Positions 40,129 through 42,859 of a stretch of 64,000 bases of DNA are shown piece after piece. The number at the start of each line of letters is the position of its first letter. Position 1 is the first letter of the stretch. Position numbers and translations under genes: made by a program. Under the pieces are notes generated by a model, which was given only the letters and a program-made list of their open reading frames with translations, ran no database searches and had not been told where the DNA came from. Where the stretch lies: sequence record SRR20825010_2279. One strand, written 5' to 3'.

Positions 40129-42859
40129 ATTCATTTATATTTATGGGCAGTTTTAGACTGAAGGTGCTTCCTTTCCCCAATTTACTTTTAAACCCTACAG
40201 TTCCGCTTAGAAGCCCCGTATACTGTTTTACTATATTAAGACCAAGTCCGGTCCCTTGGAAATTGGTGGCATTTTCCGCACGGTAAAATCGCTCGAACAA
40301 CTTTTTCTGATTTGCCTTAGGGATGCCGATTCCTTGATCCTTAACATGGATAAATAGCTCTTTATCATTAGCATCAACTTCCAATCCAATAATTTGTCCT
40401 TCCATGGAATACTTAATGGCATTAGAAAGTAGATTAATAATAATATGGTTCAACAATTTGGGGTCAAGACAAACCGATATAGAAGGTTGGGAATACTTTA
40501 AAACAATGTCCTGACCCTCTTTTTTGTTTGGTTCCATCTCATCTACCAACATTTTTAAGAATTGTATCAACTCAAAAAACTGTGGTTTCACAGATACCTT
40601 GCCCTCTTCCAACTTGCTCAAGGATAGAAAATCGTTAAGAATAACAACAAGATCCCTCACATTGGTCCTAATCCTGGAGACATGCTTCATCCTCCTATCC
40701 TCCTTACCTGGCTCATTCTGTTTTCCTATAAGTATAGCCGAAGAAAGAATAGCACTCAAAGGTGTGCGGAATTCATGGGAGGCTATCGTAATAAAACGGG
40801 ATTTTAACTCATTTAGTTCCTTTTCCACCATTATTGTCCTTTCAAGTTTATGCTGTACCTCTTTCTGCTCGGTAACATTGTTATAAACGAACAAGGCCCA
40901 CATTATTTTCTTTTCATCAGAATAGAGCGGTGTAGAATTAACAGCATAGCATTGGTCGTGAAAATCTACTTCAAATGAAATATTGCCCCCCCTTAGAGTT
41001 TTTCGAATATCCGATTTTATTTTTTTGATCTGTATTTTTGAAAAAACAGGGATGTCATCTATTGGAATTCCTTCAAAATCCGACTTTTTAATGTTGATTC
41101 GGTCCATTTCCTCCCCTTCCACATAAACCAATTCATAATCGGAATTAAATACCATGATGACCCCATTGGGAAAATTATGTGCAATAGCAGTAAACAAGGC
41201 CCTACTGAGATTTGCCTTCCTTTGAGCTCTTTGGGTCTCGATCATTTGATCTTCCAGATTTAAATTGGTCGATACCAGTTTTTCTACCGTAGTTCGAACT
41301 TCCCTAGTCCGTTCTTCAACTTTGTCTTCCAATACATGGGCATATTCCTCCAGTTTTCTCTTGGCATCCTGAATTTCGGTAACATCGTTGAGAACCCCAA
41401 TGAAATGCGTCAGTTTCTGATCTTGATCATATAGGGGCGTAATAAACAAATCGTTCCAAAAAAGAATGCCGTCCTTACTGTAATTCCGAATCAATACTCG
41501 GCAGGAACTACCGTGGTCAATGGCTTTGGACATAAAGGCAATTTCGGGCTGGTTACGATCGCCGTTCTGCAAGAATCTGCAATTTCTCCCCAGAACTTCA
41601 TCGGCCCCATATCCGGTAATTTGGGTAAAGGCCTTATTAGAATATATAATGGGAAGATCGGGATGCTGGGCATCCACAATAATAATACCGTTGCCTACGG
41701 CTTCCAAGGCCCTGTTTCTAATTTTTAAGGTTTCTTGGGTCAACTTGTTTTCCGTAATATCCAGTCCAGAACTTACGACAGCTATAATTTCATTGTTTCC
41801 ATTCCTCAAGGCAGCATTGCTCCATTGAATTAGGTGCTCTTGCCCTCCTTTGGCAACAATAGGGTTTTCATGAAAGTTGGGCAGATCTAATTTATCTTCA
41901 AAAATAGATTCAAAAAGTTGGATCAATTGGTTTTGCTTCCTTTTAGGTATAAATTCCTTAAACCAGTTTTTATTCAAAATAGCATCTTGTTCAATTCCCA
42001 ATATTTCACTGGTCCTTTTATTGACAAGTTGAACGGTATGGTCCTTATTGATCACTAAAAACATGGAAGGCGAAGTGTCCATATATTGGCGGAGCAATTT
42101 TTTTTCCATCACCAGGGCGTGTTCTGCAGTCTTCAACTCTGTATAATCCTGCATAAAGCCTTCCCGTCTATAAGGAATATCATTTTCATCCATAATACAG
42201 GAACCGTGCTCCCATATCCATTTTATTTCCTTTTTTGAGGTAATTATCCTATACCGAAGCTGGTACGATCCTTTTTCCATTACGGCCCTGTCAAGTTCAG
42301 ACTCAACCTGTGGCAAATCCTCTGGGTGAATTAAATTTCCCCAATTAAGTTTAGAGTTACCATAAAACTGATCAGGGGCATATCCACTAATAGTTCTGGA
42401 AGCCTCGCTAATGAATTCCATAGACCATGGCTTGGCAATACTACAACTGTATACAATTCCGGCAACATTGGTGACCAAAGTTCTGAACTTCCTGTCGCTT
42501 TCAAACACCGGGTTATCCGCTCGCTTGCAGTAGATCACTTTTAGGCTTTGGCCTTTTAGTACGGTTGGTACGATCCTAATATCGATAGGAAATTTAACCC
42601 CAGTCTTTTCCCGACCATAAAACTGATTGGGCCCTACTACAATCTCATTCATTTCCGCAGCAAGAGCATTGATCTTCCAGTCAGGAATAATCAAATGGAT
42701 ATCCTGCTGTAGCAACTCACCCTCAACATAACCGAACATTTGTTCTGCCGACTTGTTGGCGGTGAGAATAAATCCATTTTGGTCTACCACAATAAGTCCG
42801 GCTAAGGAAGATTCAAAAATGGATTGAAAAAGATCGCTATTTGTTATTTTTTCATTCAT
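40106..42859 (-). CDS. Multi-PAS sensor histidine kinase containing a LOV domain
   Basis: Several PAS repeats; GRNCRFLQ at 41590-41567; [9 protein letters not shown] H-box; [22 protein letters not shown]; start 42859 preferred to TTG at 42964. Confidence 0.92.
   Translation of the reverse strand: [917 protein letters not shown]

Follow-up and report, generated by a model that had tools for sequence, protein, structure and literature searches.

The stretch of 64,000 nucleotides from sequence record SRR20825010_2279 (hereafter the window) comes from Arenibacter (Flavobacteriaceae), a marine flavobacterium, and carries on its minus strand the gene of a cytoplasmic multi-PAS sensor histidine kinase. 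The fourth PAS domain of this kinase is a LOV domain with an intact flavin-adduct cysteine and a leucine, Leu525, in place of the glutamine of the Iβ strand. By its residue set, the domain belongs to the published class of glutamine-deficient LOV domains, and the kinase is probably a working blue-light sensor with slower dark recovery, a weaker and blue-shifted response, and output via the response regulator encoded directly downstream. New here are the Gln/Leu polymorphism among orthologues of closely related species and the mosaic makeup of the sensor region. The analysis shows the domain anatomy, the integrity of the motifs, the site of the leucine and its occurrence among strains and species, the action of purifying selection, and regulator synteny. 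Residue numbers count from TTG 42964, the first codon of an open frame of 952 amino acids; subtracting 35 converts them to those of the 917-residue protein.

A preliminary description of the window had placed at 41375-41700 a LOV domain that keeps the adduct cysteine and carries Leu instead of the Iβ Gln, and both motifs and alignment to solved LOV domains bear this out. The peptides that it quoted all occur on the minus strand within open reading frame 40106..42964, the first (11 letters) as residues 436-446 (window 41627-41659) and the second (18 letters) as residues 494-511 (window 41432-41485). Its range agrees with a Pfam PAS_9 match to residues 425-530, with boundaries that are approximate only. 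In HMMER comparisons with solved structures, LOV domains ranked at the top (1e-34 to 1e-22), led by 9vf7_A (1.1e-34). The consensus GXNCRFLQ is present as GRNCRFLQ with Cys462, and Asn494 (RNY) and Asn504 (FWN) align with conserved asparagines of 9vf7 and 7r5n and are invariant in the orthologues; motif context and a published residue list map them to N94/N104 of YtvA and N482/N492 of AsLOV2. All nine LOV-defining residues (G459, N461, C462, R463, F464, L465, Q466, N494, and N504) are in place, and these nine flavin/adduct residues, GRNCRFLQ included, are invariant in 12/12 aligned orthologues. The Iβ glutamine typical of LOV domains is missing: Leu525 stands opposite the Gln of FVGIQSDVS (9vf7, 9vf8) and FIGVQKDVS (7r5n) in the HMMER alignments. 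Dietler et al. (2022, Nat Commun 13:2618; PMC9098866) define LOV-ΔQ by at least eight of nine residues equivalent to YtvA G59, N61, C62, R63, F64, L65, Q66, N94, and N104, without Gln at the position of Q123. With nine of nine residues and Leu525, the kinase domain falls within this definition.

The predicted fold agrees with this assignment. An AlphaFold2 model of residues 405-560, built with 12 orthologues in the alignment (mean predicted local distance difference test [pLDDT] score, 79.5), comprises an A'α helix, a five-stranded PAS core, and a long C-terminal Jα helix. The top Foldseek matches of the model are LOV domains without exception, at template modeling (TM) scores of 0.79 to 0.93; the Meiothermus LOV domain MrLOV (9vf7) was matched at 0.79 to 0.90, and the PpSB LOV domains and YtvA were likewise retrieved.

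Leu525 is genuine and no sequencing error, because the nearest genome (G001) and contigs of independent metagenome runs also encode Leu at this site. The LOV region of G001 is 98% identical and has the same CTC codon. In contigs of metagenome runs X2 and X11, which belong to separate studies, 41390 G>C yields CTG and retains Leu; contigs of these two runs also carry 41393 A>G, synonymous in Val524, and 41579 G>A in contigs of runs X2 and X14 yields TGT and retains Cys462. The codons of Cys462, Leu525, and the neighboring Val524 therefore show synonymous variants only among the strain contigs. The CTC of the window is one synonymous step past CTG, which persists in strains of the same species.

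Gln-less LOV domains are no rarity in nature. Dietler et al. report about 350 natural LOV-ΔQ receptors, in which Leu and Ile are the chief replacements, so that the domain described here would, taken alone, be one more Leu-type member of a class published in 2022. Two samples of homologues illustrate the same preference. In the first, made up of the query and the best 120 cluster representatives matching the LOV region, the adduct cysteine is present in 119 LOV domains, 96 with Gln, 18 with Leu, 3 with Ile, 1 with Ser, and 1 with Ala; the Leu count includes the query and its own cluster and becomes 17/118 when the query is left out. An exhaustive search of 50%-identity representatives returned 93,364 matches at E ≤ 0.001, and the best 150 of these 93,364 contain 143 domains with an N-C-[RKQ]-[FLI] motif, the query included: 97 Gln, 20 Leu, 4 Ala, 4 Ser, 3 His, 2 Ile, 2 Thr, 1 Asn, and 10 unreadable rows (Leu in 19/142 without the query, with the 10 unreadable rows retained). 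Ranked by summed score, this second set is enriched in giant multi-PAS/multi-LOV proteins and is a biased sample that gives no frequency. Leu is the usual alternative to Gln, in agreement with Dietler et al. Among the giant proteins, P0122, P0123, P0136, P0137, P0143, P0148, and others (1,085 to 4,197 amino acids) contain multiple LOV-like repeats that combine GRNCRFLQ with Leu in place of the Gln, as in CIGVLADVD or SIGVLADS, and form a separate, repeated Leu-type LOV lineage.

The preliminary description had suggested that orthologues be aligned to learn whether Leu is conserved, and the outcome is a polymorphism. A LOV match at E ≤ 1e-30 was found in 18 of 25 Arenibacter species genomes; one of the seven nonmatching genomes is only 60% complete. 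Orthologues of the kinase are present in 17 species, of which 10 have Leu (CTG in nine, CTC in one) and 7 have Gln (CAG in all); the cysteine codon is TGT in 15/17. Loci L001 to L010 represent the same species as ten of the 17, with identical DNA, and add no further evidence. Genome G007 encodes a shorter PAS-LOV-PAS histidine kinase (L029) with NRNCRFLQ and FVGIQNDIT, a Gln type, and no five-PAS orthologue was found in it at E ≤ 1e-30. G001 itself carries a single LOV gene at E ≤ 1e-5, besides a PAS domain of 26% identity. Two orthologue clusters deviate in the adduct motif. P0038, a Gln type, reads GKNGRFLQ and is a natural Cys-less LOV domain with Gly for the adduct residue. In P0018, Ile occupies the Gln site, the motif is degraded (GENCGFLL), and the branch is long; this cluster may represent a decaying gene or come from a poor contig.

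Switches between Gln and Leu were counted on a maximum-likelihood tree restricted to the LOV region (32 rows by 132 columns, without the trait column), because the kinase gene is a mosaic; a full-length protein tree, on which the label changes four times, was set aside for the same reason. In the LOV-only tree, a main Leu clade of 12 Leu and 1 Ile rows includes the window (support, 96/91), L009 and L010 (Leu) are sister to L008 (Gln; support, 87/83), and L002 (Leu) falls among Gln types with weak support. The Leu label requires three changes (5 to 95% bootstrap range, 3 to 4), and a single change sufficed in 0 of 200 bootstrap trees. Constraining Leu and Ile rows to one clade cost 18 log-likelihood units and was rejected in the approximately unbiased test (p-AU, 0.028), a modest test, since the alignment is short and membership in the group follows from the trait itself.

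DNA flanking the codon refines this picture. L008 and L009/L010 have almost identical flanks over the 87 nt compared, and their codons are one base apart (CAG versus CTG); L008/L028 (Gln) and L009/L010/L022/L024 (Leu) likewise have one local haplotype in common except for this clean single-base difference. L002 is Gln-type-like upstream of the codon and Leu-type-like downstream, with the junction at most about 30 nt from the codon, which suggests that its Leu may have arrived by recombination. For this reason L002/L016 was rejected as proof of a third independent mutation: in the comparison with the window, the divergent block gives way to the conserved one within about 30 nt of the codon. Sequence comparison thus indicates at least two mutational Gln/Leu switches and probably one transfer. 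Three residues, V423, L491, and D/E533, accompany Leu in 12 of 15 Leu-type rows; L009/L010 have none of the three and L002 lacks V423. Compensation for Leu by changes at these positions was rejected, as L009/L010 are Leu types with Gln-type residues at all three, and the covariation looks like linkage.

The kinase gene is a mosaic produced by recombination. Compared with Arenibacter sp. F20364 (L002) in 200-nt windows, the locus falls into conserved and divergent blocks of DNA identity (Table 1), and synonymous divergence between the window and L002 is saturated in the LOV part. Protein identities calculated per domain give different nearest relatives for PAS1, PAS2, PAS3, and LOV. Across species, the kinase is 71 to 76% identical in protein sequence, compared with 85 to 96% for the regulator, 94 to 99% for YtxH, and 72 to 95% for the patatin gene. 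Exchange and diversification have thus affected the sensor half far more than the DNA around it.

We calculated the ratio of nonsynonymous to synonymous divergence (dN/dS) by the Nei-Gojobori method over 118 LOV codons. Leu-Leu pairs with measurable dS give 0.06 to 0.19 (window-L001, 0.116; window-L005, 0.138; window-L006, 0.059; L001-L005, 0.165), and Gln-Gln pairs give 0.10 to 0.19; two near-identical Leu-Leu pairs (dS, 0.026) give 0.27 and 0.57 and hold little information. Leu is kept across pairs with dS of 0.4 to 2.7, even though CTG to CAG is a single transversion. Because dN/dS is low, the nine residues are invariant, and Leu has been kept over large synonymous distances, the Leu-type LOV domain is a constrained, working domain under purifying selection, in which Leu is either favored or merely tolerated.

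Published work on Gln replacement suggests how such a domain might operate. The preliminary description had stated that LOV receptors without this Gln retain some signaling, and Dietler et al. support it: they show the Iβ Gln to be dispensable, as it has been regarded since 2022, and most residues at its site support signaling by the engineered kinase YF1. YF1 Q123L still binds flavin and forms the adduct, but its recovery is slowed 10-fold and about half of the kinase response is left. In AsLOV2 Q513L, recovery is about 22-fold slower, the circular dichroism amplitude is halved, and there is a hypsochromic shift; NmPAL Q347L retains light-dependent RNA binding. At about 1 Å, structures with and without Gln undergo the same light-induced changes, and the authors prefer the view that a transiently entering water relays the signal. 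They also mention that the C terminus of LOV has a conserved DIT motif. In a further study, AsLOV2 Q513M slowed recovery more than 4-fold (PMC11151830).

By analogy, the LOV domain of the Arenibacter kinase would bind a flavin nucleotide, and blue light would drive formation of a thioadduct between Cys462 and flavin C4a, leaving N5 protonated. Because Leu525 replaces the Iβ Gln, this protonation could not be read by a side-chain flip; a transient water might instead carry the change to the β-sheet, the D-V-T junction, and the flanking helices. The signal would then pass through the long helical linker and the fifth PAS-like domain to the DHp/CA core, shifting the balance of kinase and phosphatase activity toward the cotranscribed REC-cNMP-Crp transcription factor. 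Relative to the Gln types found in sister species, absorbance is predicted to be blue-shifted by about 6 to 10 nm, the response amplitude to be smaller, and dark recovery to be about 10 times slower, which would give higher sensitivity in low light and poorer time resolution. Flavin binding, the photocycle, its kinetics, the direction of kinase regulation, and the regulon are what we infer here.

Several observations weigh against a light-sensing kinase of this kind. The second phosphate-binding Arg of solved LOV domains (9vf7, 7r5n) aligns with Ser479, followed by Lys480 (window 41525-41530), and flavin affinity or cofactor type could differ because Ser479 replaces this Arg; position 479 is Ser or Ala throughout the orthologue group (Arenibacter/Maribacter-type), Gln types included. 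A long helix and a PAS-like domain separate LOV from DHp, three PAS domains lie upstream, and light may be one of several inputs to the kinase. For the kinetics we extrapolate from other scaffolds, and the sole natural Gln-deficient LOV domain tested by Dietler et al. has Met rather than Leu. Our literature searches for LOV together with flavobacteria, Bacteroidetes, or Arenibacter returned nothing relevant, with no Flavobacteriaceae LOV receptor described, and a search for "glutamine-deficient" LOV turned up Dietler et al. alone. Contigs from an RNA library (X15, below) cover parts of the gene only; the library may contain DNA, and they do not imply transcription.

How the two residue states came to coexist is a separate matter from whether the domain senses light. 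The Gln/Leu choice might be a naturally used tuning knob, selection retaining each state so as to fit photocycle lifetime and light sensitivity to the local light regime. Point mutation would account for two or more of the switches and recombination at the LOV/Jα junction probably for another, while the sensor half was shuffled between species; we regard this as a speculative and rather doubtful proposal. It competes with the idea that the kinase is a light sensor in which Gln or Leu makes little physiological difference, so that Leu is a nearly neutral polymorphism spread by drift and recombination. This second account, though short of an even chance in our judgment, draws on the commonness of both states (10 Leu and 7 Gln in 17 species), on CAG and CTG being one nucleotide apart, on the single-base difference between L008/L028 and L009/L010/L022/L024 on a shared haplotype, on the equal dN/dS of both types, and on the lack of a consistent compensatory change with Leu at positions 423, 491, and 533; the tolerance of YF1 for most residues at this site (PMC9098866) fits as well. 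Near neutrality is harder to reconcile with the effect of Q-to-L in three scaffolds, in which recovery changed 10- to 22-fold and the response was halved, changes unlikely to be invisible to selection. It also has to accommodate the dominance of Gln across LOV domains (96/119 and 97/143 among the best representatives) and a main Leu clade that kept Leu across saturating synonymous divergence.

Two other explanations deny the photoadduct its role altogether. The LOV domain might be light-blind or purely structural, a dimerization or spacer PAS in a kinase driven by ligands of its other PAS domains. Four other PAS or PAS-like domains are available for this, the Gln that couples flavin to the sheet and the second phosphate Arg are both gone, and P0018 and P0038 have a degraded motif and a Gly for the adduct Cys, respectively. 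A structural PAS domain, however, needs neither N-C-R-F-L-Q nor both asparagines, yet the nine flavin/adduct residues are invariant in the 12 aligned orthologues, Leu-type dN/dS is 0.06 to 0.19, the Cys codon varies only synonymously, and engineered Q-to-L variants bind flavin and cycle (PMC9098866); we consider this explanation improbable. We give slightly less credence still to a flavin redox or oxygen sensor, in which the reduction state rather than the photoadduct sets kinase activity. The preliminary description had offered a flavin redox sensor as an alternative, and the sequence lends it no specific support; with the Cys present, adduct photochemistry is expected. According to Dietler et al., N5 protonation via the neutral semiquinone can signal in LOV, and LOV domains have been suggested to descend from redox flavoproteins. 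LOV midpoint potentials lie near cytosolic values, and in a series whose shifts reached as much as 40 mV, Q513M ranks with the substitutions that raise the midpoint potential of the AsLOV2 flavin most (PMC11151830). The stress-like neighbors YtxH, Hsp20, and P-type ATPases would also suit such a sensor. These midpoint data concern Met, and no Leu-specific redox data turned up. The adduct Cys is strictly kept and, as Dietler et al. argue, makes the signaling state less redox dependent, and apart from Leu the sequence is no different from that of ordinary LOV kinases. A blue-light sensor kinase remains our preferred reading.

The embedding of the LOV domain among other PAS domains of a kinase, as the preliminary description had put it, is reproduced by Pfam, which gives four PAS matches plus HisKA and HATPase_c. 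The domain order is PAS-PAS-PAS-LOV-long helix-weak PAS-HisKA-HATPase_c (Table 1); with an H-box histidine, His730, in the DHp domain and a HATPase_c domain, the protein is a two-component sensor of the HisKA class. The true start is probably ATG 42859, because close homologues have 917 amino acids and align from residue 36 (MNEKITN); the open frame reaches 35 codons further upstream, to TTG 42964, and the extension (42860-42964) is probably untranslated. Beyond residue 560, where the modelled piece ends, we infer from the sequence that the helical linker continues. The fifth PAS-like domain scores 16.9 bits, below the Pfam cutoff of 23.1, and its end (ALFVYNNVT) aligns in phmmer with a PAS Iβ strand of one orthologue; the assignment is weak. 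The kinase is no equivalog of NCBIfam YtvA_fam (NF052652) or BluLightHisKinLov (NF052306), because its scores lie far below their cutoffs (146.1 versus 250 bits and 124 versus 450 bits, respectively); the LOV part alone matches in both (E 1.2e-42 for NF052652).

Table 1. Features of the kinase locus and DNA identity blocks within it (window coordinates; residues counted from TTG 42964)
Feature	Coordinates	Strand	Details
Response regulator, REC + cNMP-binding + Crp-type helix-turn-helix	39061..40134	-	357 amino acids; Pfam
Sensor histidine kinase gene	40106..42859	-	917 amino acids from ATG 42859
PAS domain 1	42515..42847	-	residues ~40-150; PAS_8 at 45-93; segment alone PAS_9, 2.3e-10
PAS domain 2	42110..42487	-	residues ~160-285; PAS_3 at 184-270, E 7.1e-32
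PAS domain 3	41747..42079	-	residues 296-406; PAS_4, E 7.7e-28
A'α helix, N-terminal in LOV module	41699..41746	-	residues 407-422; helix 3-18 of AlphaFold2 model
LOV core domain	41375..41692	-	residues 425-530; PAS_9, E 5.5e-41
GRNCRFLQ flavin-adduct motif	41567..41590	-	residues 459-466; Cys462 = TGC, 41579-41581
Iβ strand FIGVLNDVT, including C-terminal D-V-T junction motif	41378..41404	-	residues 521-529
Leu525 codon, Iβ Gln position	41390..41392	-	CTC (plus strand GAG)
Long Jα-like helical linker	41195..41380	-	residues ~529-590; model helix 125-155, pLDDT falling to 56-68
Fifth PAS-like domain, weak	40862..41167	-	residues ~600-701; PAS_4, E 0.0077
HisKA (DHp) domain	40601..40804	-	residues 721-788, E 9.8e-12
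Phospho-acceptor His730 in HEFRTPL	40775-40777	-	motif position
HATPase_c catalytic domain	40142..40465	-	residues 834-941, E 3.1e-26
Block, PAS1 to LOV end	41365-42764		68-76% DNA identity to L002
Block	40565-41364		87-96% DNA identity to L002
Block, most of CA domain	40165-40564		67-78% DNA identity to L002
Flanks and regulator gene			mostly 91-98% DNA identity to L002; one intergenic window 88%

The start of the regulator gene overlaps the end of the kinase gene by 29 nt, and the regulator lies directly downstream of the kinase in 10/10 full-length Arenibacter loci, at the protein identities given above. This synteny makes the REC-cNMP-Crp protein the probable cognate response regulator of the kinase. 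Further genes between window positions 28838 and 53555 encode Pta-AckA, an ABC1 kinase, a sigma-70 region-4 protein, YtxH, a patatin-like lipase, two P-type cation ATPases, Hsp20, a UPRTase, and a glucan phosphorylase, a neighborhood that looks stress and energy related. Three parts of the locus (39061-39162, 40653-40826, and 42208-42964) are matched at ≥99% by contigs of X15, a marine metagenome run of poly(A) RNA-Seq, which gives a weak hint of expression; parts that these contigs leave uncovered carry no information.

The value of this kinase is comparative. Orthologous kinases of equal architecture and with the same probable partner regulator, Gln-type in 7 species and Leu-type in 10, amount to a natural experiment; they could reveal whether bacteria tune light sensitivity via this residue. 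The natural pair L008 versus L009/L010 would probe the contribution of Gln to recovery rate, spectral position, and response amplitude. Should the residue indeed serve as a tuning knob, the Arenibacter orthologues would be the first natural allelic series bearing on why Gln is so widely conserved. Slow-recovering Leu-type domains are useful in practice, too, as sensitive optogenetic modules.

With the LOV-ΔQ receptors described by Dietler et al., the Arenibacter domain shares the conserved residue set, the absence of Gln, and Leu as a predominant replacement. The natural receptor tested in that study is a LOV-GGDEF-EAL protein of Mesorhizobium loti with Met140, which is repressed by blue light, whereas here the domain sits with Leu in a five-PAS flavobacterial histidine kinase. 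YF1 Q123L, AsLOV2 Q513L (PDB 7pgz/7ph0), and NmPAL Q347L have the identical residue change at the identical Iβ position. Those are laboratory mutants of Gln-type proteins, in contrast to the native Leu described here, which appears to be under purifying selection. YF1, like the Arenibacter kinase, is a LOV-regulated HisKA kinase, but the Arenibacter LOV domain is not directly fused to DHp. The nearest solved structures are the LOV domain of Meiothermus ruber Mrub_1259 (PDB 9vf7/9vf8), annotated as a histidine kinase, and the short LOV proteins PpSB1, PpSB2, PF5, and SBW25, at 44 to 52% identity (HMMER, 1e-34 to 1e-28; TM score, 0.79 to 0.93) and with a common A'α-core-Jα layout; 9vf7, 9vf8, and 7r5n have the Iβ Gln and the Arg where the Arenibacter kinase has Leu525 and Ser479. 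LOV input and histidine kinase output are common to Brucella LOV-HK (3t50/6pps), which also has a LOV-PAS arrangement, the Erythrobacter EL346-type kinase (4r3a), and family NF052306. The Arenibacter protein departs from these bacterial LOV histidine kinases in the three extra PAS domains at its N terminus, its HisKA-type DHp, and its probable REC-cNMP-Crp partner.

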